DNA from: a virus
Lineage: Duplodnaviria > Heunggongvirae > Uroviricota > Caudoviricetes
Direction: 5' to 3' (one strand)
IMG/VR virus record: IMGVR_UViG_3300045988_146577
Length of the DNA stretch: 64,000 nucleotides
Positions 16,349 through 64,000 of the stretch are shown here, piece by piece. The position numbers and the translations under genes were made by a program. The notes below the pieces were generated by a model. The model made no database searches and was not told the DNA's origin. It was given only the letters and a program-made list of their open reading frames with translations. Every line of letters starts with the position of its first letter. The first letter of the stretch is position 1.

Positions 16349-17422
16349 GTGGATATTGTCACCATGCGCATGAATAGACTTCCAGGATATGGCCTTACCG
16401 AACTGGCTTTTTGGCCTCAGCCTAAATATGAACGGAATAAATGGTCGATGTTCTGTCTGAAACTCCGTAATGATGGAACCCTTGCTTGGTATCGGCGATA
16501 TGTTGATCGTGGTATGCCAAACCACGCTTTTGATGACGACTACGATAACTATCCTGAAGCAAGAAAAGCGGCATTAGAGCTGAATAAAAACGTGAGCTTT
16601 GACATTGAAAAACTTCCTCTATCTATGTTTCAAAAGAAGTCATTGCGTTTGAAAGTTGACAAAGCACTCAAAGCCAAATCACGTCTCATGGATGAAGAGC
16701 ATATAATGCTCAACGAAGCAATTAAGGCACACGCCAACGATCCGCGAGTGACATTAAATGAGTTAATAATTAACCCAGATTACGAAACTTTGCGTCAACC
16801 CCTTTTTGACGTGCTAAGCGAGATGCCTTACTTACATTTTGTTTTTCTTCCCAAATTCCAAGTTTCACTTCAACTCGTTGCTCCTAACACTTGGGAATGT
16901 TCATATAACAACAAAGCTAAGACAGCGAAGATCTGCTACCAAGAACGCATAGCCAGAGGTTTTGGTTTATCAGGCGCTGCACATTGGGGAAAAACAAAAG
17001 CGACTATTCGCTCAATGCTTCTGCCGCGTGCTAACCGGTTACTGCAACTCGCCAGCGTAAAAAGAATGCTGGATGAAGCTCTCAGGAATGGGCAAAAGGT
17101 ACTGGTTGTTGGCAACTTTGTTTTCTGGTTTGAGGACAAAAATCAGGTAGGTTGGAGTGTTAAAGTTGCTAGCGAAAGCGAAACCACCTCAAGAGGCAAT
17201 ACGCTCTGGAAAGAAGGAACTATCATTTCAAAAAATCACGGTCGAATTGTCGTGCTGCCGTATACAAAAGAAAACGGTAAACATGTAAAAGGTTATACCA
17301 AGAATGCCCCTAACGACGGCAACGCAATTCCGAGACATAAGGATGAGTATGTCGAGTTGCCCTTTGAAATTTTGGATGGTGACTTGATGTTCAGTCTGTT
17401 CGGTGAGCTTAACTACGAATAG
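16349..17422 (+). CDS. hypothetical protein (lone plus-strand gene)
   Basis: 357 aa ORF with no recognisable motif. Confidence 0.5.
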   Translation: MDIVTMRMNRLPGYGLTELAFWPQPKYERNKWSMFCLKLRNDGTLAWYRRYVDRGMPNHAFDDDYDNYPEARKAALELNKNVSFDIEKLPLSMFQKKSLRLKVDKALKAKSRLMDEEHIMLNEAIKAHANDPRVTLNELIINPDYETLRQPLFDVLSEMPYLHFVFLPKFQVSLQLVAPNTWECSYNNKAKTAKICYQERIARGFGLSGAAHWGKTKATIRSMLLPRANRLLQLASVKRMLDEALRNGQKVLVVGNFVFWFEDKNQVGWSVKVASESETTSRGNTLWKEGTIISKNHGRIVVLPYTKENGKHVKGYTKNAPNDGNAIPRHKDEYVELPFEILDGDLMFSLFGELNYE

Positions 17423-17482: not shown

Positions 17483-17842
17483 TCAACCTTTCTTCATCAA
17501 CTCTCGTTTGATTTCATCGGTACGCATCGTGACATCGGCAGCGGTGATCGCCTCATTCAATTTCACGATGTCCTCGATTTCCTGCGGTGACTTCTCTGCC
17601 AGATGGAAAATGGCTGCTCGAATCACGTCAGAACGAGTGAACTTCTCGAAGCGAGGGATGAACTTCATCATCTCCAGCAGTTCGAAGTATTCGTCCTCCA
17701 GTGACATTGTGCGGCTTTTAATTTTCTCTTTGCCACGAGTCGGGCGTCCCTGTGGTCTGACTGGTTGGCGCAAAGGAGTTGTGTTCTTAGCCGGTGCATC
17801 AGGCTCTTTGCGCTTTGCTAGGTCACCCATTTTCATGGACAT
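17483..17842 (-). CDS. putative partition centromere-binding protein (ParG/ParB-like small partner of ParA)
   Basis: 119 aa ORF directly downstream of and abutting ParA; basic N-terminus; assigned by position only. Confidence 0.4.
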   Translation of the reverse strand: MSMKMGDLAKRKEPDAPAKNTTPLRQPVRPQGRPTRGKEKIKSRTMSLEDEYFELLEMMKFIPRFEKFTRSDVIRAAIFHLAEKSPQEIEDIVKLNEAITAADVTMRTDEIKRELMKKG

Positions 17843-18510
17843 TATTCTTCTTCCTCCAGACTCAACAGATAATCTACAAATTCTTCAAACTCGGCTTCCG
17901 CCTTTTTGTCGCGCTCGCTACCGGTCATTTCAAAGATAGAACGACCAGACTCTTCCGCATCATCATAGACGTTGCGGTTATATAGATTGACTGGCGCAGA
18001 CTCGATTCCAAACGTCTCAACAATCTCTTTAGCCGCCAGAATGCGAGACACTTGTGATGGCAAAGCCGGGCACTGGTTCATGACCGCGCGGACCTTCACT
18101 TTATCGTTTACATTGCGAACATTGTCGATAATAGGATCGATGTCACGTAAAGATTTCAAATCACGACGCTTAGGACGCAGCGGGATAATGATAACGTCAG
18201 CCATCAGCATCGCTTGTCGCTGAATTTCGGAGTCGAAGCCACCAGCATCTACCACTACAAACTCAGCTCTACCCTGAAGCGATTTTAGGTGCTTAATGAT
18301 GTCATCCTGAACGTATGCAAAAGGAATCAGCTCAAGGTCTTCGTTCTGTCGACGGTCTTCACACCAGCTCGTTGTCGTGCGCTGAATATCTATATCGGTA
18401 ATATAAACCTTCTTCTTCTTTTTGACTTTCATGCAAACGGCAATTTGCTGGGCAACGGTGGATTTGCCAGGCCCGCCCTTTGTGCCGCCAACCACAAAGA
18501 TCTTGGTCAT
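17842..18510 (-). CDS. parA: ParA/Soj-family partition ATPase
   Basis: 222 aa; deviant Walker A GGTKGGPGKST at N-terminus. Confidence 0.8.
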   Translation of the reverse strand: MTKIFVVGGTKGGPGKSTVAQQIAVCMKVKKKKKVYITDIDIQRTTTSWCEDRRQNEDLELIPFAYVQDDIIKHLKSLQGRAEFVVVDAGGFDSEIQRQAMLMADVIIIPLRPKRRDLKSLRDIDPIIDNVRNVNDKVKVRAVMNQCPALPSQVSRILAAKEIVETFGIESAPVNLYNRNVYDDAEESGRSIFEMTGSERDKKAEAEFEEFVDYLLSLEEEE

Positions 18511-45794: not shown

Positions 45795-47051
45795 CTATCG
45801 AGAGCCACCAAGAATAACACGGTTTTTGACTGGATACCTACGATGTACTGGATAGCCCAATGCGTCTGCACTATGCTCAATGCCACCTGTCTTATCCATA
45901 TCTCGTGTTCCAGGCTTGTAGATGACTTTTTCCAGTGAATCAATCAAATGCTTGCACTTCGGATCGATATACAGCCGGATATCTCCAGATGCGGTCATCA
46001 GCATTCGGTTAACAGCATTAACACGATCCGCAATTGGCGGGTGCTTTTTCGAATAATCGACACGTAAGAATCCCTTCTCTTTGAATATGTCGACGTCAGA
46101 CTCCCCGCGAGCATGTTGGCGATAAGCACCTGCCGGATCTGGAAATACCGTTATCTGTGATTTCCAGCGCCAGAAGCGTCTCTCAAGCTCATCACAAACC
46201 TCTGCCGTGTTAGAGGAAAAGAGCACCAATTCATCAATTGCCCATAGCTCACCATTTGGCTGAGGTTGCAAAATTACTGAAGACATCGGGTCAATGTTGA
46301 AGTCCTGCCCTACCCATATAGGCAACCGAGGGTTGAACTGAAGCGGTTTTACATGCACGTTACGATCGAACGGGTAGTAAACGCGCCCGGACATGTTCTC
46401 AAAGCTCGCCAGGTACTCCTGAGCGAACGATTTCGGGTCCATATCGTTCTTAGCAGCTTCAATTTCCGCCGTAGGTACAAACGGAGAATCGGCAGTTACA
46501 AACTGCCAGCTCTTCCACTGTCCCTTTCTTTGCAGCTCTACGTTCTGGCCTATAGTCCACAGTTTGTGAAATTCCGAGAAGCCTTTTGGCGTACCAATGA
46601 TCAGTGCACCGCCGCGTGTCGATGAAAGAGTAGGTCGTAACACCTTGTACCAGGTGTCAGCCTTCATATCCTGAAATTCATCAAGCACTACAAAATGCAA
46701 CGCTACGCCGCGCAGAGTGTCAGGCTTATCAGCACCTTTGAGGGCGATCTCCGAACCGTTCTTCAACACGATTGTCATCGTGGTGTCGTTCTTTCTCCTA
46801 ACCCACTTACGAGGCAGAACTTCCTGTAGATCGTCCCACAAAATCTGGCGAGCCATCTGGTAAGTAGGAGCGACATACCAGACCCTTTGCTTTTTTTCCT
46901 TTGCCGCCGCACGAATAATAGTGGAGATCGACAACCGGGATTTTCCCCAGCGTCGACCAGCACAAACAACTTTAAATCGATGCGGAGACTGGAAGACTTT
47001 CATCTGTCCAGAATGCAGTTGCACAAGACTGAGCGAGGACGGGATTGCCAT
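45795..47051 (-). CDS. terminase large subunit
   Basis: 418 aa; Walker A VVCAGRRWGKS, Walker B-like VVLDEFQDM, C-terminal nuclease-like region. Confidence 0.8.
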   Translation of the reverse strand: MAIPSSLSLVQLHSGQMKVFQSPHRFKVVCAGRRWGKSRLSISTIIRAAAKEKKQRVWYVAPTYQMARQILWDDLQEVLPRKWVRRKNDTTMTIVLKNGSEIALKGADKPDTLRGVALHFVVLDEFQDMKADTWYKVLRPTLSSTRGGALIIGTPKGFSEFHKLWTIGQNVELQRKGQWKSWQFVTADSPFVPTAEIEAAKNDMDPKSFAQEYLASFENMSGRVYYPFDRNVHVKPLQFNPRLPIWVGQDFNIDPMSSVILQPQPNGELWAIDELVLFSSNTAEVCDELERRFWRWKSQITVFPDPAGAYRQHARGESDVDIFKEKGFLRVDYSKKHPPIADRVNAVNRMLMTASGDIRLYIDPKCKHLIDSLEKVIYKPGTRDMDKTGGIEHSADALGYPVHRRYPVKNRVILGGSR

Positions 47052-47683
47052 TATTCGTCCTCCCCTTCACTTCCATCATCTGTCGCATCAAATTCGCTTA
47101 GAGCTTCTTCTTCCAACGTCTCAAGCAATTCGTCATCGATGATTTCAGGCTCGTCGTCTTCCTGACGTAATTTCGCCACCTGGGAAGGCGTAAGCTCACC
47201 AAATACCAGGTTCGGAATTTCTTCCTCGTCATTTTCCGCATGATCCATGCCCAATGCTTTGGACGAAACTTCAAAGCATTTTGCAAGGGTATTACTGGCT
47301 CTCTGTAAGCTCTTGAGAGAATCCTCAATCGCCCCTAAAGGCTTACCCTCACGTTTGGCCGTAGTGACTTCGACCATCACCATCTGCCCCAACGCATACG
47401 CCCAGCCGTCATAACGTGTACGACGTTCTTCTATCTTTTCCGCACGGGCTTTAGCGCGAAGCTCTGCGTCAGATTTAAGAGACTCACGAACCATCTTCCC
47501 AACAGAGTCCGCGCCTTTCTCTAATCCTCGCTTTTTGAAATGTCTGGAGAGTGTTTCACGACGAATGCCGTACTCTTCCTCCAGCTTTGAGAGTGTATAT
47601 TCGCCTGACGTCCATTTGGCTTCAGCTTCGGCCCACTCCGCTGGTGTCAGGCGAGTTTTTACCTCGTCTTTTTCGACCGTCAT
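47051..47683 (-). CDS. terminase small subunit (HTH)
   Basis: 210 aa; N-terminal HTH-like region, acidic C-terminus; abuts terminase large subunit. Confidence 0.6.
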   Translation of the reverse strand: MTVEKDEVKTRLTPAEWAEAEAKWTSGEYTLSKLEEEYGIRRETLSRHFKKRGLEKGADSVGKMVRESLKSDAELRAKARAEKIEERRTRYDGWAYALGQMVMVEVTTAKREGKPLGAIEDSLKSLQRASNTLAKCFEVSSKALGMDHAENDEEEIPNLVFGELTPSQVAKLRQEDDEPEIIDDELLETLEEEALSEFDATDDGSEGEDE

Positions 47684-48155: not shown

Positions 48156-49046
48156 TTATGCCGGTAAAGCAATTTCTAACGGTTTATCCAAAGGTTGTTT
48201 GTCGAATGCCAGCAGTGGCAGCGTGTCAGGCAGTCGACGGCCAAAGTCAGGGTTTCGGTACACACCATACAACGGAGACGTAAAGCTCAGGTTGTGAATG
48301 TCCTTGAGCAGCTTCACAATGCTGGCCTCGTCCACCAGACTGTCGGCAATGTCCTGAATCGTCGTGCCACGATTCCGCCCAGCTTTTGCCAGGGAACTGT
48401 TCTTGTGGTAGTCCGCCACCAGATCACGCAATGCACGGCGACGACGAGACTCGCTCATTGCGAACAACTCTTTGACGATCGCCTCGTTATCACCCGGGTC
48501 GGAACGGAAATGGCGCTGGAATACACGCAGTGCACTTTCATAGCTCTTCGGTCGCTCAGGGCGGATGAACTTAAACCCTGCTTTCATGGCGAAGGGATTG
48601 TATTTGCTCATCGAGGACTGGATCTCAATGATTGGCCGGTCATGCATCCTGCTAACCAGGTTAATCATTCGATAAGAGACGCCTACGCCACGATACTGAG
48701 TATCCACAACTGAGCGACTGATCACCGCAAAGTTGTTATTCACGTACCGACCCCAGTACTGGTTAGCCACGGTGGTATTAGTGGTTGGTTTCAACTTAGG
48801 AAACATGCGGTGGCGAGGTGCCAACAGTAGTTTCGGGTAAGCCATAACCACGACGCCCACCAGACGGTCATCAAGTTCGCAGCGATAGTAAGTTGGCGCG
48901 AAAGGTTTGCCGTCTGTTTTGTAGTGAAGCGACTTAAGAGCGTGCCAGTCCTCTACAGTTCCCTTTGTGACAGTCATTCGCTCCAGAAAGTCCAGATGAC
49001 GCGGAAACTCTTCAGGGCGGTAGCGTTTAATGATGATGTCCGTCAT
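48156..49046 (-). CDS. GNAT-fold (acyl-CoA N-acyltransferase-like) protein with extra C-terminal domain
   Basis: 296 aa; motif-A-like RSVVDTQYRGVGVSYRMINL; 4-nt overlap with upstream ATPase gene. Confidence 0.55.
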   Translation of the reverse strand: MTDIIIKRYRPEEFPRHLDFLERMTVTKGTVEDWHALKSLHYKTDGKPFAPTYYRCELDDRLVGVVVMAYPKLLLAPRHRMFPKLKPTTNTTVANQYWGRYVNNNFAVISRSVVDTQYRGVGVSYRMINLVSRMHDRPIIEIQSSMSKYNPFAMKAGFKFIRPERPKSYESALRVFQRHFRSDPGDNEAIVKELFAMSESRRRRALRDLVADYHKNSSLAKAGRNRGTTIQDIADSLVDEASIVKLLKDIHNLSFTSPLYGVYRNPDFGRRLPDTLPLLAFDKQPLDKPLEIALPA

Positions 49047-49708
49047 AAATGAACCTCATCATGACTACCATTGTGATATTCCACCTTCACGCGTTCTTTG
49101 TAGTGCTTGGTGATCTGCATATCCGGGCGCAGCGCGTTCTTCAGGTCTTCGTGAGTCGTCGCCACCATTACCGTTGCACCAACCTTTCGAGCGGCACGCT
49201 GGAGGTTAGATGCCACAACCTGAGCGGTTACACGGTCTAGAACAGCACCGAACTCGTCAGCAGCCCACACTTTAGCGCCTGACTCAATCAGTTTGGCAAT
49301 CTTGAGACGATATTTCTGACCGTCTGACATTTCAGAAGGCTTGCGAACAAACAGATATGCATCGTTCAGACCAGCCATAGATAACAACCCAAGCGCATCG
49401 CTGGTCGTTTTGCCCAACTGATCGATGACGTTAACCTCATTATCGAAGGTAAAATCATCGATGGAGGCTACAGACAGCCCTTCATCCTTCATCTGTCGTT
49501 GCAACTCGCGCAGCACAACGGATTTGCCGGAACCGGATTGGCCGGTGATGTACACCACATCGCCCTGCTTCACTTCCAGCTCCAGATTGTCGTAAAGCGT
49601 CCACTCTTTTTCGTCCAGGCCAAGCCCGAACGACTCAGCGATTTCCAACGTGCGAGTGGTTTTATTTACGCGTGTCTGAAACGATACGTTGATGATGTAT
49701 TTGCTCAT
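49043..49708 (-). CDS. ABC-type ATPase (nucleotide-binding domain only)
   Basis: 221 aa; Walker A GQSGSGKS, signature-like MSDGQKYRL, Walker B VWAADEFG, H-loop-like TTHEDL. Confidence 0.7.
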   Translation of the reverse strand: MSKYIINVSFQTRVNKTTRTLEIAESFGLGLDEKEWTLYDNLELEVKQGDVVYITGQSGSGKSVVLRELQRQMKDEGLSVASIDDFTFDNEVNVIDQLGKTTSDALGLLSMAGLNDAYLFVRKPSEMSDGQKYRLKIAKLIESGAKVWAADEFGAVLDRVTAQVVASNLQRAARKVGATVMVATTHEDLKNALRPDMQITKHYKERVKVEYHNGSHDEVHL

Positions 49709-50406
49709 GCAGCCATCTCCCCGGAAGAGATCTTCTCCGCATATGCCACAAATGCGTCTACCCCGCTTTCTCCCGTCATTTCTTCCATGTGGGCAAGCAA
49801 ATCACCAACAACAATGGCAGAGCCAGCAGGGAGCGTTTTAAAGCCCAATACGTCGACAACACGTACTTCTTCCGCTGCAACTTCACGACTGATCTCGGTG
49901 TGTTCATCCTTCTGTCGTTTAGTTTCTTCGCCAAGATCGATAACTAGCGAGTCGGTGTCCATTTCTTCTGTCATGCTGCCAACGAGAACATTCAACTCAC
50001 GCTCTTCAAAGCCGAAAACCTCGATATCGTCCAGAACAAGCGACTCAAGCTCTTTCTGTAGCTTAATTGCATCGTAATCAATGCTGGCAAGTCGGTTATC
50101 TTCAAGGCGCTTCGCACGAACCTCGTCATCACTGAGATCATCGCGAACAATAACCGGTACGCGCTCAAGTCCAGCAAAAATTGCAGCCTCACGGCGGCCG
50201 TGGCCAGTAATAATTACGTCGTTCTTATCGACCGTAATTGGCTGGTCAAATCCGCGCTTTTTAATGGCTGCGGCCAGATCTCGGATCTGCTGTTCATCAT
50301 GCTTTTTGGCATTCATCTCATAGGGAATAAGATCTGCCGGGTCGCGATATACGATTTCAAACTTTTTGGTCATTACATACGCTCCTTGTAGTAGTCGACC
50401 AGCCAC
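49705..50406 (-). CDS. ParB N-terminal-domain (ParB/Srx-like) protein, paralog 1
   Basis: 233 aa; ParB-box-like ITGHGRREAA; no obvious HTH; acidic C-terminus. Confidence 0.65.
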   Translation of the reverse strand: MAGRLLQGAYVMTKKFEIVYRDPADLIPYEMNAKKHDEQQIRDLAAAIKKRGFDQPITVDKNDVIITGHGRREAAIFAGLERVPVIVRDDLSDDEVRAKRLEDNRLASIDYDAIKLQKELESLVLDDIEVFGFEERELNVLVGSMTEEMDTDSLVIDLGEETKRQKDEHTEISREVAAEEVRVVDVLGFKTLPAGSAIVVGDLLAHMEEMTGESGVDAFVAYAEKISSGEMAA

Positions 50407-51071
50407 ACCAGAGCCTCACCAGCGTTCTCCATTTCATTACCGGTGTTAATAGCCTGCTCTTTGATGATGTTTTTTATGGTTTCTGCAACACGATCTGACG
50501 CATCGAAAGTTACTTTGAAGCGCATGGTCTGATGTTCCGCACCCACACGTTCGGTTTTCTCTCGTTTGTCGGTATCGACAGGCTCATCACTACCACGAGA
50601 CAACGCCTCCAGTGCTTCAAGGTCGATTGCCGCCTCTTTTGCTAAAACCATCGAGATTTCGTCGTCATACGGGGCGATTTCAGACAGTTGATAGTCAAGT
50701 TCTGACTGAATTTCTTCAATGAAGCGTTGCAATGCGATTTGGTCGTCTTCACCGTATCGCTCGTTGTCCACCAGTGACATCTGTTTAGCTACGACATCGC
50801 TAATTTTGCCCACAGAAAGCACCGGAACCGTTGAAATTCCTTGCTCAATAGCAGCACGCCAGCGATGTTCGCCGCCGAGGATTTCAAAAAATCCATCTTC
50901 AAGTTCACGAGCCAAAATTGGCTTAAAAAAGCCCAATTTTTCGATAGAACCTTTCAGTTTTTCAAAATTCTGCGCACCAACCGAATTGGTGTTCCAGGTA
51001 TTCGGGCGAAGGTTGGCAACATCAACCTGCAAAATCGTGATTTTTACATCCATTTTATTGCTACAATCCAC
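50373..51071 (-). CDS. ParB N-terminal-domain (ParB/Srx-like) protein, paralog 2
   Basis: 232 aa; classic ParB box ILGGEHRWRAAIEQG; first gene of operon. Confidence 0.7.
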   Translation of the reverse strand: MDCSNKMDVKITILQVDVANLRPNTWNTNSVGAQNFEKLKGSIEKLGFFKPILARELEDGFFEILGGEHRWRAAIEQGISTVPVLSVGKISDVVAKQMSLVDNERYGEDDQIALQRFIEEIQSELDYQLSEIAPYDDEISMVLAKEAAIDLEALEALSRGSDEPVDTDKREKTERVGAEHQTMRFKVTFDASDRVAETIKNIIKEQAINTGNEMENAGEALVWLVDYYKERM

Positions 51072-54895: not shown

Positions 54896-55417
54896 ATGGT
54901 TAAAGACATCACCTACGGCATACCGGCTGAAGTATGGCCGCGAGACTACGAACATGCTGAACGCACCTTGCTCTTCTGGCGGAGAGCTAAATTTCCTGTA
55001 AGAGTCACTCTCGAAGACGGCCAAGTGTTTTGCATGTACGTTTATGGTCTCATGTCATCTCGTAACAAAGTTGACCTTTGTCCAACTCCATTTGACAAAG
55101 AAAATCGTATAAGGCTCCCACTTGAGCGCATTAGCACAATTGAATCAGGCGTAATTGATGGCATTGATTACGATTTCAAAGGGAGACTAACAATACACCC
55201 TGACTATGTAGACAACCAGCCATCACGTCGTGACTTTTTTAAGATATGTCGTCAGGCTTACCAAAACGGCAAATCTATAAGGGTCTACATGGCAGACGGT
55301 CGCGAAATTGAGGGAACGTCAGATGGCGTTGACGCCTGTCTAGTCACACTTAAGTTGGAAGACGGTAGAAAAATACTTATTTTCTTCGATTGGGTTGAAC
55401 GAATCCTTCCGTTTTAG
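54896..55417 (+). CDS. hypothetical protein
   Basis: 173 aa ORF. Confidence 0.45.
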   Translation: MVKDITYGIPAEVWPRDYEHAERTLLFWRRAKFPVRVTLEDGQVFCMYVYGLMSSRNKVDLCPTPFDKENRIRLPLERISTIESGVIDGIDYDFKGRLTIHPDYVDNQPSRRDFFKICRQAYQNGKSIRVYMADGREIEGTSDGVDACLVTLKLEDGRKILIFFDWVERILPF

Positions 55418-56009: not shown

Positions 56010-56660
56010 ATGACTAACATTATCATTTCTAAAAAATCCATCATTGAAGCTGCTGCCATTGTATCCGACGAGCTGCGCGAAAAAGCAGATCTGGCAACTC
56101 AAACATATAACGAACATTATAAAAATGGTACGCACACAAAAGCAGACAAAGCAAATATGCAAGCTGCGACCACCAAACTTGCTTACTTCATCAACAACGT
56201 CGTAAACGCAGTAGAAGACGAAAAATTGTGCTCTGTTTTCTACTATGCGATCAAAGCAAGCAAACAAGCGCCAGAAGTATTTTTCCGTGATGCAATGACT
56301 AATAGTTATTCTCTGGAAAAACTGGTTTATCTGGTTAAATCCATTAAAGCTGGAAAGTGTGTTTATTCCGTCGCTGATATGTCCGGATCTCGTGTATTCG
56401 CATTAATCGATATGATTAACGACGAGATCGAGACGTTCACAAATGGCGCTGTTTTCGATTTAATGAATGAAGCGAAAAAAGCCAACGAAATAAAATTAGA
56501 CGCAGGATACACTCAAGCCAACCAGCTTATCAATCTTTGCGAACGTCTTGGACTTGTTGAGAAAGTCAAAGGAATGGGAAGCGCAAAAGCTGGTACGCAG
56601 CAATATCGCTTTATTAAAAATGATTTCTATAACTATCTGGCTGATGCTTTCAAAGCGTAA
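56010..56660 (+). CDS. hypothetical protein
   Basis: 216 aa ORF followed by terminator at 56674. Confidence 0.5.
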   Translation: MTNIIISKKSIIEAAAIVSDELREKADLATQTYNEHYKNGTHTKADKANMQAATTKLAYFINNVVNAVEDEKLCSVFYYAIKASKQAPEVFFRDAMTNSYSLEKLVYLVKSIKAGKCVYSVADMSGSRVFALIDMINDEIETFTNGAVFDLMNEAKKANEIKLDAGYTQANQLINLCERLGLVEKVKGMGSAKAGTQQYRFIKNDFYNYLADAFKA

Positions 56661-57017: not shown

Positions 57018-57424
57018 GTCTTTGACTCAAGCCAACAACATAAAAATAAGCGCCAAAATAACGCCATAGACGCGCTTTTATATCCTTACCAGTACATACC
57101 CATTACTTAGCGCATTAACGCGCTTAAATCGCGTTATATTGCGTTATGGTGTATGGTTAATCATTGGCTTTTATTCTTGCTATGTGATCCGCGTTTAATT
57201 GTCGGCGCGGATCGGCATTTTGTTTTGTTCCGTATCCGCTCGCGTATTATGTGCGCGTGATTTTTCACATAATCACACCACTTAATCACATATGTGATTA
57301 CGCTACGAAAGAAATCTGGATGTCTCAGGCGACGAAAGTCATCATAATTTTCCCCGCTCACCTGTCCGACAACCGCTGGTTGGATTCCACCAGCTTCCCG
57401 ATGTTTTTTCTATATAAAGGCGAA

Positions 57425-57545
57425 TGCAGCCGTTTCCCGAAAAAATCCTGGCCGTTTCCCGTCGGCTCATGAATACGTTCCTCGCCGTTTCTGAAAATTT
57501 CCCTGCGGCAGCTGGTGGCTATATAGAAAGGGCCGTTTCTGGCCC
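57425..57545. repeat. iteron cluster 1 (4 copies of GCCGTTTCC/TG-like motif)
   Basis: AGCCGTTTCCCG, GGCCGTTTCCCG, CGCCGTTTCTG, GGCCGTTTCTGG spaced 20-50 nt. Confidence 0.6.
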
Positions 57546-57554
57546 TCTTCTCAG

Positions 57555-58037
57555 TTACACGCCATCAAGGATGTGGATGCGGTTGCTTGCGTATACATTC
57601 AGCATAAAGTTAGCGCAAAACAGTTTCCATGTATCAACGCCAGCGGTATACGTAATGTTTTTGCATTTAATCGCATTGTTGGCGATCCGCATCCCCTGCG
57701 ATACTGCTTCATCGTCGGAAAATTTGAACGACGATTGAGTTTTAATCCAGACAGAAATCTGCGTAGCGAACTCAATCAGCTTGGACTGGCAGAATCGCCC
57801 GGAGCGCACCGGAAAGACGAACGTTCCGAATCCAGAATTTACCACATACGCTTTCTCAAATACCCGCGAGTAACGACGATTGCCAATGATGTCGCGTGCA
57901 ATAATGCATTTTTCTTGTGCTGACAGTTCTACCGTCTCATTGTCGCGCCATGCACCAAGTACTCGTTTTTCAATGTCAGAGAACGTTACAGCGATATTGC
58001 CATGTGCGGGTGCGTTTACAGTAGCGATAAAATTCAT
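57555..58037 (-). CDS. hypothetical protein
   Basis: 160 aa ORF; motif-A promoter-operator immediately upstream. Confidence 0.5.
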   Translation of the reverse strand: MNFIATVNAPAHGNIAVTFSDIEKRVLGAWRDNETVELSAQEKCIIARDIIGNRRYSRVFEKAYVVNSGFGTFVFPVRSGRFCQSKLIEFATQISVWIKTQSSFKFSDDEAVSQGMRIANNAIKCKNITYTAGVDTWKLFCANFMLNVYASNRIHILDGV

Positions 58038-58054
58038 GATTAATTCCTTATCGT

Positions 58055-58092
58055 AAATAACAAATTGTTTTCTTGTTGGTGTTAATTATCGT
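58055..58092 (-). promoter_or_regulatory. promoter-operator motif A (GATAAT -10-like box plus AACAAATTGTT palindrome)
   Basis: minus-strand CGATAATTAACACCAACAAGAAAACAATTTGTT just upstream of start at 58037. Confidence 0.55.
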
Positions 58093-58241
58093 TGTACGAA
58101 TAAGGCGTCAAAGTGGAAAGTTGCGGTAGCCGGACGGGAACAGGTGGGTTTGTCGGTTGCCTGGAGGTAAGAGGTTGGTGTTTTTAGCCTGCGGGAAACA
58201 GGATGGTCATTTAAGGCCACCAGCATTGGTGGCCTTACTCT

Positions 58242-58528
58242 TTAGTGGAGCAGACCGATGTCGATGGTATCCCCTGAATCATCCACACGGATCATCAGCA
58301 TGGCGAAGGCGTTTAGTGGATAGCTTGCGTGCCATTCAGGGAAGCGGTCATCTCGCATGAAGTCGGCAATGTCGTAAACGCAGCCCTCAAAGTGGAAGAA
58401 TCGCGTGCTTACCTGCTCGTCATATTCCACATGATCCATTTCTTGCTGTTCTGTTTCCGGCAAGTCCAGCCATGATTCAAGGAATACATTTTGTGCTTTA
58501 GGGGTAATGGTGAAATCAGTCATGAGCA
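58242..58528 (-). CDS. small acidic protein
   Basis: Start re-assigned to ATG near 58528 after SD GAGGAT (track start 58655 lies upstream of the promoter motif); about 95 aa. Confidence 0.5.
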
Positions 58529-58542
58529 TATCCTCACTGCGT

Positions 58543-58575
58543 AAACATATTGTTTTCTTGTTGGTGTAATTATCG
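58543..58575 (-). promoter_or_regulatory. promoter-operator motif A
   Basis: minus-strand TGCGATAATTACACCAACAAGAAAACAATATGTTT (extended -10-like TGnGATAAT). Confidence 0.55.
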
Positions 58576-58858
58576 CAGTGTAGATAAGGCATAAAAGAAG
58601 TTAATACAGGCTGAATACACAAGAAAGGTTCTGGAAGTTGATAGCCAGGTTTCAAACTAACCTTCGGTTATTAAAAGTCATTTAAGACCACCAATGCTGG
58701 TGGCCTTAATAATTATCGCCCGATTACGCTAAGGATCTTTTCCTCAACTGATTTGTTGTTGCGACTAAACTGCCTTGCGTATCTGATGACAGAAGAGGCG
58801 TTTTGCTTTCTGACCATCTCGACTCTTTCCTTCAGGCGTTTCTTGAAATCGCCCATAT

Positions 58859-59233
58859 TTACCACCAGGCGCAGAAGGTCAGTCTGTTATTGTGAAAGTC
58901 GTGGTTCTTAATCAGATCTTCCACAAGCTCTTTCAACTCCCCCACATCATGCCAGTAACCTTCATCGTACTCCTGACTGCCGAAGAAAAAACCTTCCCGG
59001 GTAGGCAAGTACTCTTCGCAATTACTTTCGTTTATGTGCATCAAATGAGCCTTCAGAAAACAAATGTCATTCATCGTTAATTCTAAAAGCTCACAATTTT
59101 CGACTTCACCTACGTTGCGCTCCATCCACCCAACGAGCGCATTGAACTTACGGAAGTAAGCAACCTGCTTTCTGGATGCCTCGTTATTCAGATCGTTTTT
59201 AGGCTGTGTCTCGATATAGATATCAAGTCCCAT
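58859..59233 (-). CDS. hypothetical protein
   Basis: Start re-assigned to ATG near 59233 after SD AAGGAAA; about 124 aa. Confidence 0.45.
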   Translation of the reverse strand: MGLDIYIETQPKNDLNNEASRKQVAYFRKFNALVGWMERNVGEVENCELLELTMNDICFLKAHLMHINESNCEEYLPTREGFFFGSQEYDEGYWHDVGELKELVEDLIKNHDFHNNRLTFCAWW

Positions 59234-59310
59234 GATGGTTTCCTTATTAAGTTGCTTCAGTGAAATCATTTTCACAAATCAGATAAGGCAGAAAACAAAT
59301 TGTTATCGGG

Positions 59311-59339
59311 CATAATAAAATGGCGCGGTTTGCGCGCCA
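59311..59339 (-). terminator. rho-independent terminator
   Basis: GGCGCG/CGCGCC hairpin followed by U-run on minus strand, just after the stop at 59351. Confidence 0.5.
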
Positions 59340-59350
59340 TTTAAAGAGGA

Positions 59351-59746
59351 TTAAGCGAATACGCTTTCAGGGATTAAGGTGTCGGCAGGAATGCCAGAGG
59401 TAATGCGCAGACCGTACTGGCCAATCCAGGTGGTGCTGGTGTTCAGGCTGGAGGCGAATACGGTGTTAACCATATTCATCATGGTTTCAAACACCTCTTC
59501 ATCAACCTGGCGGAAGTAGTTCTCGATTTTCAGCAGCAGAGGGTCAGTTGCATCGAGAATGGACTGGTATTGAGTCGCGTACTCGCCGCCGGAGGCATCA
59601 CCTTTACGCACGATCGTACTGGCCTGGACTTCGGCACCAGTTTCGGTGTTGTACGTAACAACGGTGATTTTTGCCACATTCTTACCTTCGGCGGTTTCAG
59701 AGGCATAGTAAACATCAACTGTCAGTTTTTCGCGTTTAACGGTCAT
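59351..59746 (-). CDS. hypothetical protein
   Basis: Start re-assigned to ATG near 59746 after SD GGAGAG; about 131 aa; TAAGTATGTACTTA palindrome upstream. Confidence 0.5.
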   Translation of the reverse strand: MTVKREKLTVDVYYASETAEGKNVAKITVVTYNTETGAEVQASTIVRKGDASGGEYATQYQSILDATDPLLLKIENYFRQVDEEVFETMMNMVNTVFASSLNTSTTWIGQYGLRITSGIPADTLIPESVFA

Positions 59747-59810
59747 TTCACTCTCCGTAGTGTTTTGGTTATTTTTATATTCTATGATCGTAAGTATGTA
59801 CTTACAATAC

Positions 59811-59837
59811 AAAAAAGCCCCGTAAGGATGGCGGGGC
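59811..59837 (-). terminator. rho-independent terminator
   Basis: GCCCCGCCATCCTTACGGGGC hairpin + U6 on minus strand. Confidence 0.65.
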
Positions 59838-59872
59838 TGTCGTACTGTCGACTAATTACCACTTGCACATTA

Positions 59873-60187
59873 TCAGGCTATTGCCATCACTGATGCTCTC
59901 TGAATTTCTTGCTGGGCCACGCGGTTAACTTCCATCAAAGCCAGTTCGAGCTGATGTTCCGGCCACATTCTTTGAAATGCCATCCAGCCTTTTCCACGCT
60001 GGCGACGAACATTCATTACATAACGAGTAAAGGTGTTTTTATCGAAAGACACCGCTGTTTCACGGAACAGACGAATAGAGGTTCCATTGGCAACGATGTC
60101 CAGCAAAGTTAATTGAGCAACCAGCGCAGGCTTCTCTTTTCTCTTCTGGTCTTTGTCCAGACCAAGAACCAATGATTTTTTCATCAC
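59873..60187 (-). CDS. small basic protein, possible DNA-binding regulator
   Basis: Start re-assigned to ATG near 60187 after SD GGAG; about 104 aa, Lys/Arg-rich. Confidence 0.45.
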   Translation of the reverse strand: MMKKSLVLGLDKDQKRKEKPALVAQLTLLDIVANGTSIRLFRETAVSFDKNTFTRYVMNVRRQRGKGWMAFQRMWPEHQLELALMEVNRVAQQEIQRASVMAIA

Positions 60188-60195
60188 AACTCCGT

Positions 60196-60211
60196 AAACA
60201 ACTTGTTTTCT
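60196..60211 (-). promoter_or_regulatory. operator motif A
   Basis: AAACAACTTGTTTTCT just upstream of start at 60187. Confidence 0.5.
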
Positions 60212-60337
60212 CAATGGCGTAAATAATACCAGTAAGAAAACGGCTACAAAGCATATTGATCAGGTGCATGAGCGATATGCAGGTTCTTCCCTGCGGCTAT
60301 AGAGAAATTAAGCCAGCAATGCTGGCTTTGGTTGGGA

Positions 60338-60667
60338 TTACTCGAATACTTCAAGAAACTCCTGAACGTCCCAATGCTGGACGAGGTGAAGATAGACCTT
60401 AGAAATCACGTCATTTTCGCTATCGCATGTGAAGTAGTACTTCTGGCTGCGGTTGTATGTGTCCACACAAAATTCGCTCATATCCATAAAGTCAGCATCT
60501 TCACCCATGTCGCAAATCATCAAAGCAGGTGCGTCATCACGAGTCATCAGCTCAAGCACCCACCGCGAATTGATCAGAGTGGAAGACCAACCTTCCAGCT
60601 CATAGAACTGGTCAAACTCTTTTTGAGTCAATTTCTTGATTTGGTTGATGTCGATATGTGCAAACAT
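60338..60667 (-). CDS. small acidic protein
   Basis: Start re-assigned to ATG near 60667 after SD AAGGA; about 109 aa; Asp/Glu-rich. Confidence 0.5.
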   Translation of the reverse strand: MFAHIDINQIKKLTQKEFDQFYELEGWSSTLINSRWVLELMTRDDAPALMICDMGEDADFMDMSEFCVDTYNRSQKYYFTCDSENDVISKVYLHLVQHWDVQEFLEVFE

Positions 60668-60679
60668 AAAGCAATCCTT

Positions 60680-60712
60680 AAACAACATGTTTTCTTGTTG
60701 GTGTTATTATCG
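60680..60712 (-). promoter_or_regulatory. promoter-operator motif A
   Basis: minus-strand TGCGATAATAACACCAACAAGAAAACATGTTGTTT directly upstream of SD and ATG. Confidence 0.55.
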
Positions 60713-60994
60713 CAATAACGCACAGGCGAAAAAGGATTTTATTCCGGTGAATGTGGTTTTGGCAGTGAGTTTTCAGGTTCAGTACCGAGTACACTTTTTA
60801 CATTATTCTGATTTAGTGGCCGAAGGTGGCTGGTGGGCAGAATAATCATCTCCCCGAAAACCTACTGAAATCGATTGTGACCCGTTGGCTGTCTGGCACA
60901 ATTACGCTGTAACTGGGCATTCAGAGGGAATCCAGCGGTAAGTAAGTTCGCCTGCACGTGAGCGCCTCTCTTCTTCCCGCACATTACAGGTGGG

Positions 60995-61185
60995 TAGCCG
61001 CAACTCTCCCTCTCGCTATACCGGTACGCCGCCGTTCCTGAACCGGCATCGAGCCTTTTCCCGAAATCCACACAGGCAACTCGACCGTTTCCCTGAAAAC
61101 CTCCAGCCGTTCCCCGAAGGCAACCCAGCCGTTTCTGTAGCGGGATGCAGCCTTTTCCCTGTATGGACCGAAGGCTGACCGTAGG
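60995..61185. repeat. iteron cluster 2 (6 copies of CCGTTTCC-like motif)
   Basis: CGCCGTTCCTG, AGCCTTTTCCCG, GACCGTTTCCCTG, AGCCGTTCCCCG, AGCCGTTTCTG, AGCCTTTTCCCTG at ~20-30 nt spacing. Confidence 0.6.
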
Positions 61186-61225: not shown

Positions 61226-61248
61226 AAAAAGGAGGCGACACCCCTCCT
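61226..61248 (-). terminator. terminator-like hairpin ending the transcript of the GT-skewed region
   Basis: AGGAGG/CCTCCT stem with 7-nt loop followed by U5 on minus strand. Confidence 0.4.
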
Positions 61249-61249
61249 T

Positions 61250-62110
61250 CCCTCCCCACTTATACATACCTGTCTTGTTCGCTATACATGTTGTGTTTTC
61301 TTCGTGTTTTATCTGTCTCAACCTCTCTATAGGCGTTAATGCTCACTCCTTCCAGAACGTTCTATACGGCGACTATTTCTGTTGGTGAATTGGGTGTGTT
61401 GTTTTCTCTGTCGGTGTATGTAGTTTCATTAGTTTTGCGGTGGTTCTTCTATGGGGTGTTCTCGTCGTTTTGGTGATTGTTCTTCTCCGTGTATGGAGTA
61501 ATGACAGGTGGGCGATTGCTTTCGTTATTGTGTTTGAGTTGTTTGTCTGGAGTGTGAAAGGCTTTTGTAGTTATTCGTGTATTGGGTAATGGCGTTTCCC
61601 GTGATTGTTATGTTTCGTGTCTTTTGGGATTGAGAGAAACCTTGCGGTTACAGGCTTCGTTGGGGTTTCAGTGATTCTGATGTTTCTTCGCTGTTTGGGT
61701 AATGGCGTGTCGTGAGTATCGCGCGTATGGAAGTTTCGAATTGCCTGTGAAAGTTAGGTTGGTTGTCCGGTAGCCTGGGAAGAAGAGGTGGGTCTTTTCG
61801 GTAGCCTGCCATAAAGAGGTTGGTTGTTTTGGGAATGGCATATGTGTTATTTAGTTGTTTTGTTATGCCTGAAAATAAGTTGTTTATATGGTTATGTAAC
61901 GCAACGGGAACGATTTTGAGCGTGTGTTTTTGTTGGTAGTGTGTTGGGTCGTCTGTGGTGAAAATTGGACGCTGTGGCGCTGTCTGCTGCGTAGAATTAC
62001 GGGTATAAGCTGTGATGTGTGGAAACGTCAATTTTTTAGACCAAATCGGGTGAAAGCGTTGATGTTTCGTTGATCTGTTATTCAGTTGTTTTCTTGATTG
62101 TATAAACAAC
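61250..62110 (-). ncRNA. candidate long non-coding transcript from GT-skewed (plus strand) region; transcript would be CA-rich and G-poor
   Basis: ~860 bp with strong G+T skew on plus strand, internal short repeats, no credible ORF; promoter-like motif near 62080-62110 and terminator at 61226-61248, both minus-strand. Confidence 0.3.
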
Positions 62111-62219
62111 TATAACTTATTGATATTTAAGGATGTGATTGCGGGTATGGAAGGGGAGTAGTGGCGATCAACGGATTCTTATAGAAAAGAATCAAATTGT
62201 GACCGCCATTATCAATGTT

Positions 62220-63460: not shown

Positions 63461-64000
63461 TTACTTAACCTGGTGGCCAGGTTTAGCACCAGCATCCGGG
63501 CTTAACAGGAAGATATCTTTCCCACCGGGGCCAGCAGCCATCACCATACCTTCGGAGATACCGAAGCGCATTTTACGCGGAGCCAGGTTAGCCACCATAA
63601 TGGTGTGACGACCAATCAGTGCCTGTGGGTCTGGATAAGCAGAACGGATGCCTGAGAAGACATTGCGTTTTTCACCACCTAGATCCAGCGTCAGACGCAG
63701 CAGTTTGTCAGAGCCTTCAACAAACTCCGCGTTTTCAATCAGCGCCACGCGCAGGTCAACTTTGGCGAAGTCATCAAAGGTGATGGTTTCCTGAATCGGA
63801 TCGTCTGCCAGCGGGCCAGTAACTGGCGCGGCAGTGGCTTTCACTTCTTCTTTAGAGGCTTCCACCAGTGCTTCAACCTGCTTCATGTCGATGCGGTTAT
63901 ACAGTGCTTTGAACGGATTAACTTTGTGCGCCAGCAGCGGTTGCTGGATGCCATCCCAGGTCAGTTCCGTATTGAGGAATGCTTCTGCACGCTCGGTCAG
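63461..64000 (-). CDS. metG: methionyl-tRNA synthetase, C-terminal part (partial; 5' end beyond window)
   Basis: Translation ...[30 protein letters not shown]...[19 protein letters not shown]...PGHQVK matches enterobacterial MetG C-terminal tRNA-binding domain from memory; GCCCGGCAACACGCCGGGC hairpin just downstream. Confidence 0.85.

Follow-up and report, generated by a model that had tools for sequence, protein, structure and literature searches.

What might two arrays of one short repeat do at either end of a block of small early-type genes in a phage-plasmid? The question is raised by IMGVR_UViG_3300045988_146577, a caudoviricete virus record of which a stretch of 64,000 nucleotides was analysed (the window, meaning that whole stretch). 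By annotation the element is an SSU5-type (SSU5/pLF82-type) phage-plasmid, and the 4.3-kb region around the arrays shares 98.5% identity with pLF82, the plasmid of E. coli LF82 that is also known as Escherichia phage Cyrano (a window position corresponds roughly to the pLF82 position minus 13,603). A first-pass annotation of the window had proposed two clusters of a repeated motif bracketing the early small genes, and the copy positions, shuffled controls and conservation given below bear this out. The arrays are tentatively read here as cis-elements of the phage's own replication.

Two arrays of helically phased repeats

The motif is 10-12 bp long with GCCGTTTCC(C)(N)GAAA as the core of the repeat, and every copy lies on the plus strand (Table 1). 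The six copies claimed at first pass for cluster 2 are all present. For cluster 1 four had been counted; three of them are conserved, and the fourth (57532, 48 bp beyond the start of the third) sits within the terminator hairpin of the gene for a 160-residue protein. This fourth copy is probably a terminator rather than a binding site, since it forms the stem and loop of the hairpin and reads GGGGCGTTTCCAGCCCC in relatives, whose version of the terminator has a GGGGC/GCCCC stem followed by TTTCTTTT. On direct reading some copies are palindromic in the form GTTTC-N2/3-GAAAC, for example CCGTTCCTGAACCGG at 61031 and GTTTCCCTGAAAAC at 61084, the remaining copies being half-site-like.

The exact 8-mer CCGTTTCC was found six times in the window against 1.86 expected, and at least six occurrences were seen in none of 100 shuffles. 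When the degenerate core [GA]CC[GT]TT[TC]C is used, up to six copies on one strand gather within 150 bp, where no more than three did so in any of 300 Markov-shuffled windows, and CCGTTTC is the top enriched 7-mer of the local non-coding DNA (six observed, 0.13 expected). In a motif search over the whole element and its relatives, as had been suggested at first pass, no third cluster was detected with the degenerate core across the complete 108-kb pLF82, and among relatives the core is conserved as far as Moellerella.

In 106 distinct arrays taken from relatives, the information content is confined to about 10-11 bp, G-CC-(G/T)-TT-(T/C)-C-C-C. The 22-bp spacing occurs 208 times among these arrays and nearly all other spacings are 31, 33-34 or 48 bp, which upholds the helically phased layout described earlier; rare spacings of 44, 53-55 and 66 bp also amount to roughly whole helical turns. 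Given this helical spacing, the copy-number changes that keep phase and a constant core with diverging flanks, the copies very likely behave as phased protein-binding repeats, that is, putative sites on one helix face for one DNA-binding protein.

Conservation and independence from the plasmid replicon

Both clusters hold their position, orientation and core in relatives from E. coli, Salmonella, Klebsiella, Enterobacter, Citrobacter, Cronobacter and Moellerella. Throughout the SSU5 supergroup a core of 8-12 bp is constant while the flanks diverge, and it persists where neighbouring proteins are as low as 34% in identity. The phage-plasmid of Moellerella (Morganellaceae), with proteins 34-82% identical to those of the window, has CCCCGTTTCCCGAAACC-type copies at both sites. 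Both clusters are also kept in a Klebsiella quasipneumoniae element (53% identity in the homologue of a 216-residue protein considered below) and, with one and two copies respectively, in a lineage of 63% identity (locus L212, uncertain host).

Cluster 1 was found conserved in SSU5, Enterobacter, Klebsiella, Citrobacter, Yersinia pMT1, Cronobacter, K. quasipneumoniae and Moellerella. Cluster 2 belongs to a 1.5-kb non-coding stretch with about 66% identity to SSU5, pHCM2-type Salmonella plasmids, Enterobacter and Citrobacter, and the similarity starts precisely at the start of the cluster. All six of its copies occur in SSU5 and Enterobacter as well. A 53-bp block (22+31) is missing from the Citrobacter array, the loss of 9 bp in Klebsiella turns the 31-bp spacing into 22, and one E. 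coli-type contig has five copies, one 22-bp unit fewer; the copy-number differences among relatives are whole-unit changes with the phase preserved. Yersinia pestis pMT1 carries cluster 1 only, an IS1541-associated deletion having removed cluster 2 together with the neighbouring non-coding region. In Y. pestis pMT1 is stably maintained nonetheless, so that plasmid maintenance does not require cluster 2.

Between about 750 and 840 plasmid records of PLSDB match the region; in the count of about 750, the records are from Klebsiella, Escherichia, Enterobacter, Yersinia, Salmonella, Citrobacter and Cronobacter, and nearly all are non-mobilizable. Phage-plasmids of the SSU5/pHCM2/pMT1/pKpn type thus account for hundreds of clinical plasmid records from Escherichia, Klebsiella, Salmonella, Enterobacter and Yersinia, with carriage of resistance genes possible. 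Large Klebsiella plasmids that match the G/T-rich region beside cluster 2 in part were set aside as recombinants holding a phage-plasmid fragment with type I restriction-modification cargo, and they offer no second context for the arrays.

The plasmid replicon of pLF82 lies elsewhere. Its repA gene (record positions 31-1086) is outside the window and about 33-38 kb from the clusters, within a P1/RepFIB-type origin region, made up of repA and flanking iterons, at about 1-1600 and 107.7-108.4 kb. The RepA iterons read ATCCACTATAGAGAG, are accompanied by DnaA boxes and GATC runs, and have nothing in common with the cluster motif. Moreover, the clusters persist alongside other replicons, namely rep_cluster_763 in Cronobacter and RepB-family initiators in Moellerella and in a 62-kb deletion derivative from E. 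albertii. This derivative was considered as a plasmid that might rely on the clusters alone, but it still has a RepB-type initiator. With good confidence the clusters can be regarded as genuine protein-binding arrays that form part of the conserved phage core of SSU5-type elements; the RepA iterons differ from them, and they are independent of the plasmid replicon, which is exchanged among relatives.

Possible roles of the arrays

Besides a siphovirus structural module, NrdAB, ThyA, an integrase and a UvsW-type helicase, the element encodes replisome proteins, namely a DnaB-like helicase, primase, Pol III alpha and ligase. Neither an origin nor an initiator was found for these four, and the phage-plasmid literature searched makes no mention of the repeats, a lytic origin or virion termini; nor does it describe the switch of SSU5-type elements from plasmid to phage replication, or assign them a lytic origin. 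Iteron origins are expected to have three or more helically phased direct repeats of some 17-22 bp, and both arrays agree with this in copy number and spacing. The suggestion that we tentatively prefer, one that leaves considerable room for others, is that the clusters are cis-elements of the phage's own (lytic) replication. One phage-encoded protein, the best candidate being a 216-residue putative winged-helix protein, would bind head-to-tail along one DNA face at both clusters, and the two protein-array complexes might serve as the origin and as a second cis site of lytic replication, for which P4 ori/crr and SPP1 oriL/oriR offer precedents. A leftward unit with a palindromic operator-like element ends beside each cluster, and induction could bring transcription or an RNA 3' end there. 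Such a role is suggested by the typical iterons, by a phage replisome otherwise lacking an origin, by the independence from the plasmid replicon and by the loss of cluster 2 in pMT1. It is also consistent with a candidate binder sharing its gene cluster with the UvsW-type helicase, with leftward units that end by each cluster, with nearly the same iterons being present in O-like genes and with a local enrichment of Chi sites (five within 3.5 kb).

The O-like genes came from a scan of viral contigs that required two CCGTTTCC copies 13-15 bp apart. It recovered SSU5-type elements and, in addition, lambdoid phages with four to five copies of TTGAGCCGTTTCCATTCGGCTC at a period of 22. These lambdoid iterons lie within an O-like initiator gene (phrog_9773, 'replication initiation O-like'; found in Klebsiella-type lambdoid phages such as ST405-OXA48phi1.2) in the layout of the lambda origin, and the nearest named phage is a Klebsiella prophage. 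Judged by sequence, the class of motif seen in the clusters is thus found in a lambda-type origin layout elsewhere, and the shared core reaches beyond the positions demanded by the search pattern.

A number of observations weigh against a role in phage replication. No AT-rich unwinding element of at least 40 bp was found beside either cluster; within the region G+C content is highest in the two clusters, and the most AT-rich 40-bp windows between 56.8 and 62.4 kb fall at promoters or leaders. No conserved DnaA box or IHF site stands beside the clusters, the DnaA-box-like AATCCACA in the 31-bp spacer of the window not being kept in SSU5, Klebsiella or Citrobacter. A hidden Markov model (HMM) search with the O-like DNA-binding domain over all open reading frames (ORFs) of the window and pLF82 gave no Rep- or O-like initiator homologue. 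With unwinding element, conserved DnaA box and initiator homologue all lacking, the classic initiator-iteron interpretation offered at first pass is not supported, and its remark that no Rep-like gene is obvious nearby is correct; the neighbouring genes examined gave no replication-initiator match in Pfam, NCBIfam or PHROG. The replication genes lie 40 kb away from the clusters, the lineage of 63% identity has one copy left in cluster 1, and the likeness to O-type iterons is partly built into a search whose pattern selected CCGTTTCC pairs and their spacing. The proposed binder adds to these points. Its family matched nothing in Pfam or NCBIfam, hhalign detected no homology to the O-like DNA-binding domain, a profile search of 1.84 billion proteins returned no distinct family outside this phage group, and the protein is just 34% identical in Moellerella though the motif is constant. 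The last of these could equally indicate a host factor or a more conserved phage protein.

The 216-residue protein is encoded about 770 bp upstream of cluster 1 and is unusually well conserved, at 83-87% identity across genera. In its AlphaFold2 model (predicted local distance difference test, pLDDT, 82.5) a long helical hairpin forms the N-terminal part and a winged-helix topology (H-S-H-H-S-S) the C-terminal part, and the local Foldseek matches are winged-helix DNA binders, all at E values of 0.03 or above. Helix 3 (TQxNQxxxLCxRLG) is retained in the Moellerella homologue. The profile search yielded 23 representatives of the family, many of them fragments and 22 below E 1e-4. The protein is put forward as the best, if still doubtful, candidate for the cluster binder.

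Other candidates were considered and rejected. The first-pass annotation had named the 357-residue ORF at 16349 and the small early proteins as possible binders. The former is an accessory gene without a Pfam match and cannot be the conserved partner, since it is missing from the cluster-bearing pLF82 and Moellerella relative; among the latter, the one that looks like a DNA-binding protein (103 residues, isoelectric point (pI) 10.5) is modelled by AlphaFold2 (pLDDT 79) as four strands and a helix, a fold with no significant PDB or DNA-binding match. A hidden O-like initiator was dismissed with the negative HMM and hhalign results, and a 249-residue protein upstream of the DnaB-like gene, considered as an initiator with internal iterons, has no repeats in or near its gene. 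It was judged unlikely that the ParB-N proteins at 49705-51071 read a parS-like GTTTC..GAAAC site; only their N-terminal ParB domain aligns confidently, to Spo0J, and a weak alignment tail into the helix-turn-helix region lacks the typical pattern. No global GC-skew switch occurs at the clusters, the cumulative skew being monotonic with its extreme at oriR.

Among the other roles, an architectural or regulatory boundary is unlikely. Paired arrays would loop out the 3.6-kb cassettes or block read-through and antisense transcription, insulating or silencing the early genes in the plasmid state. The clusters do stand at the exact two ends of the cassette region, each directly past a terminator and both in the same orientation; the gene content between them varies among relatives with the boundaries fixed, and inverted iteron-like cores occur upstream of the promoter of the 160-residue protein's gene (Table 1). 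However, neither cluster overlaps a predicted promoter, as would be expected of a lysogeny-repressor operator, and cluster 2 lies 270-400 bp from the nearest one. A separate dispersed palindrome is already operator-like at these promoters, and it diverges in Moellerella where the iteron core does not, such constancy being unusual for a phage-specific regulator and its site.

Two further roles are less likely still, each to about the same degree. The arrays might be dispersed partition centromeres, as in phage-plasmid N15, for a ParF-like ATPase (17842-18510; nearest solved relatives TP228 ParF and a ParA) and the adjoining 119-residue ParG-like protein (17483-17842), a pair that is probably a partition system. 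The ParF/ParG assignment is supported. The ParG-like protein has a basic tail and a ribbon-helix-helix pattern, its DNA-reading beta-strand IKSRTxSxEDEY is conserved in Moellerella, and the protein shows 90% identity or more in most relatives and occurs in cluster-bearing genera. Phased repeat arrays without an unwinding element would suit a centromere, the parFG-like operon has no such array beside it, and pMT1, in which the ParG-like gene is missing, also lacks cluster 2. Against this, pMT1 retains cluster 1 despite having no such gene, 40 kb separate the clusters from the par genes, ribbon-helix-helix proteins usually read repeats of 4-7 bp about one turn apart, and a 13-bp palindrome in the leader of the par operon itself would be a more natural ParG-type site.

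The arrays could instead be packaging signals for a small terminase-like protein (47051-47683), either as a pac site or as the boundaries of a long early-gene terminal repeat (T5/SPO1-like). Terminase recognition sites are typically phased repeats, and the packaging proteins are among the best conserved in distant relatives (TerL 80%, TerS-like 59%), which fits an invariant site; the clusters bracket small early genes in the same orientation, and the orientation of Chi would protect a DNA end at either cluster within 0.4-0.8 kb. The clusters are, on the other hand, 10-13 kb from the terminase genes. TerL is nearest to the terminases of P74-26 and T4 (gp17), and T4 packages by a headful mechanism, which would not suggest fixed ends. 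Neither cluster coincides consistently with the end of a phage record or viral contig, with the limit that the ends of database records are arbitrary.

A conserved host protein of the Enterobacterales as the reader of the sites, a notion that may overlap the other explanations, is rather improbable. Elements from Escherichia, Salmonella, Klebsiella, Yersinia and Moellerella share one and the same core, whereas the phage palindrome and most phage proteins diverge. Nevertheless, we know of no E. coli factor whose consensus matches GCCGTTTCC or GTTTC-N2-GAAAC in this order. In a scan of genome contigs for the 14-mer CCGTTTCCCGAAAA, the matches listed were scattered over unrelated taxa, and not even the SSU5-type plasmids were among them, so that the scan carries little information.

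Given the shared AGCCGTTTCC core, the same 22-bp period and the lack of such an encoded initiator, the arrays might also be orphan O-type iterons with which the phage-plasmid titrates the initiator of a co-resident lambdoid prophage as a decoy, or borrows it to fire its own replisome; this is very improbable. If true, an origin decoy would amount to interference between phages, aimed at the replication protein of a competitor.

Least credible among readings that leave the plasmid replicon aside are repeats arisen by chance, decayed coding repeats and a structured RNA: the motif does encode Gly-Asn-Gly where it is coding in other phages, but shuffle statistics, deep conservation and a 22-bp spacing that breaks the reading frame speak against the first two, and for an RNA there was no Rfam match at E <= 1, and the RNAalifold covariation terms were unfavourable (+5.4 and +3.8 kcal/mol, from five sequences only and so of low power). 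Extra RepA iterons for copy-number control by handcuffing, as in P1 incA, share just the general two-cluster layout and are ruled out for practical purposes by their other sequence, their other location and the persistence of the clusters with non-RepA replicons.

If the arrays do act in phage replication, they offer a concrete and testable candidate for the missing cis-element of the switch from plasmid to phage replication and a handle on the protein that reads them; should they prove to be a centromere or a packaging signal, a gap in the map of the family would be closed all the same.

Surroundings of the arrays and known systems

Table 1. Features at and around the two repeat clusters (window coordinates).
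Feature	Coordinates	Strand	Remarks
Cluster 1, three conserved copies	57429..57497	+	57429 GCCGTTTCCCGAAAAAA; 57451 GCCGTTTCCCGTCGGC; 57484 GCCGTTTCTGAAAA; spacing 22, 33 bp
Cluster 2, six copies	61031..61164	+	starts 61031, 61053, 61084, 61106, 61128, 61150; spacing 22, 31, 22, 22, 22 bp; 55-60% G+C
Conserved 216-residue protein, candidate binder	56010..56660	+	gene cluster shared with UvsW-type helicase
Six small early-type gene cassettes between the clusters	57555..60667	-	57555-58037, 58242-58523, 58859-59233, 59351-59746, 59873-60184, 60338-60667
Terminator hairpin of the 160-residue protein's gene	57531..57548	-	holds 57532 GCCGTTTCTGG; RNA fold GGGCC-AGAAAC-GGCCC then UUUCUAUAU
Intrinsic terminator of leftward non-coding unit	61226..61252	-	terminator scan; fold -21.3 kcal/mol with U-run
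Three 30-bp repeats upstream of the 160-residue protein's gene promoter	58121..58213	-	inverted iteron-like core CCTGTTCCCGTCCGGCT, CCTGTTTCCCGCAGGCT; repeat families D2, D4, inverted pair I25 and direct reading
Conserved 0.9-kb non-coding region by cluster 2	61260..62200		G/T-rich on plus strand; lost with cluster 2 in pMT1
Chi site	57511..57518	+	between copy 3 and terminator; kept in most relatives
Chi site	60829..60836	+	about 200 bp left of cluster 2

Six small minus-strand genes lie between the clusters, one more than had been counted at first pass. Most of these cassettes have a promoter-like element of their own (e.g. TTGACG-N16/17-GATAAT at 58110-58082, by direct reading), a 13-bp palindrome in the leader and a downstream hairpin. 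All six fall into PHROG families of unknown function, with no matches in Pfam, NCBIfam or PADLOC, and four of the products are acidic (pI 4.1-4.7). The last gene's terminator hairpin is followed, after about 35 bp, by the start of cluster 1, and cluster 2 starts about 60 bp past the terminator at 61252-61226.

The palindrome, AAACAA-N-TTGTTT and often extended to TTGTTTTCT, is dispersed over the window in 13 copies with at most one mismatch (4682, 15308, 18546, 47724, 47749, 58058, 58543, 59293, 60196, 60680, 61873, 63313 and 63364), against 0.41 expected. There are 18 copies in pLF82 and only two matching ones in the Moellerella relative. As the copies are placed in the leaders or promoters of the CobT-like, DnaB-like, parF-like, terS and small early genes, the palindrome is probably a global operator.

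The 0.9-kb region right of cluster 2 has a plus-strand GC skew of +0.4 to +0.5 and an AT skew down to -0.58, and is 66-79% conserved in all SSU5-type elements. Its invariant blocks comprise TTCTCCGTGTATGGAGTAATGGCG, repeated four times about 100 bp apart, and 30-bp CGGTAGCCTG..AGAGGTGGGT repeats; it holds no ORF and gave no Rfam match. A leftward promoter (TTGACG-17-TTATAC) was recognized at about 62029-61996, and leftward transcription, if it occurs, would yield a C/A-rich RNA of about 760 nt that stops at the terminator next to cluster 2.

The window has 16 copies of Chi (GCTGGTGG) where 1.3 would be expected. The five sites of the 3.5-kb early region are at 57387(-), 57511(+), 58217(-), 58696(+) and 60829(+), two of them embedded in near-identical terminator hairpins, and their orientations would shield a DNA end at either cluster from RecBCD. 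A second, lineage-specific set of repeats was noted to the left of cluster 1, at a distance of 20-190 bp. The version in the window (57265-57300) consists of three copies of TAATCACA and the palindrome AATCACATATGTGATT, and that in the Moellerella plasmid NZ_CP093251.1 (50990-51110) of six copies of (T/A)TCAAATGAG(GGAGGT) within an AT-rich stretch.

Further afield, a full methionyl-tRNA synthetase gene (metG) with an adjoining apbC/MinD-like ATPase gene, at 63461-63886 and beyond the window (pLF82 77069-79102), is unusual cargo for a phage. A full-length homologue of the FljA-type 'repressor of phase-1 flagellin' (54896-55417; Pfam E 3.5e-80) is kept in most SSU5-type elements and missing from the Moellerella relative, and is possibly a host-directed accessory gene. 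The operon at 48156-51071, kept in all relatives, encodes two ParB-N-domain proteins, an ABC-type ATPase and a 296-residue protein. One of the ParB-like proteins retains the GxxRxxA-type box of CTP-binding ParB with an unrecognisable helix-turn-helix region, and the PADLOC match is limited to the ParB-like N-terminus of type II methyltransferases.

In the lambdoid set, an example of the origin iterons is GAGCCGTTTCCATTCGGCTC with period 22 inside the O-like gene of contig L030 (6601-7695), where they encode ETAQEPNGNG-type peptide repeats. Related contigs are L014, L028, L041, L043, L046, L088, L098, L103, L107, L114, L121, L037 and L123, and a ParB-HTH protein is encoded directly downstream of the O-like gene in the lambdoid contigs.

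The present iteron-like arrays, which have no adjacent initiator, are paired around early genes and stay invariant during replicon exchange, were not found described in the literature searched, and each of the known systems resembles the present arrays in part. Like the P1/RepFIB-type origin of the same element, they are direct-repeat arrays on one replicon; that origin, however, has ATCCACTATAGAGAG repeats flanking its own rep gene with DnaA boxes and GATC clusters, and gives way to other replicons in relatives where the CCGTTTCC clusters persist. Centromeres built of repeat arrays include R1 parC, TP228 parH and tubC and, in N15, dispersed sopC-like sites, which can be remote from the par genes. 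These centromeres share with the arrays phased direct repeats, two clusters and no unwinding element, the difference being the survival of cluster 1 in pMT1 without a ParG-like gene. In the ori/crr sites of P4, type I iterons bound by the alpha protein, and in oriL/oriR of SPP1, bound by G38P, one short repeat likewise forms two clusters kilobases apart on one replicon. The binder there is a recognisable replication protein with an experimentally shown function, whereas for the present clusters no initiator was found and an AT-rich region is absent. In the O-like genes of Klebsiella-type lambdoid phages, direct repeats of the same 22-bp period have the common core AGCCGTTTCC, and the SSU5-type copy GCCGTTTCCCGTCGGCTC matches the lambdoid O-type unit GCCGTTTCCATTCGGCTC at 16 of 18 positions. 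The lambdoid repeats lie inside the initiator gene and their full site is the palindrome CGGCTCttGAGCCG; the SSU5-type repeats, in contrast, are non-coding, retain only the half AGCCGTTTCC and belong to an element that encodes no O-like protein.

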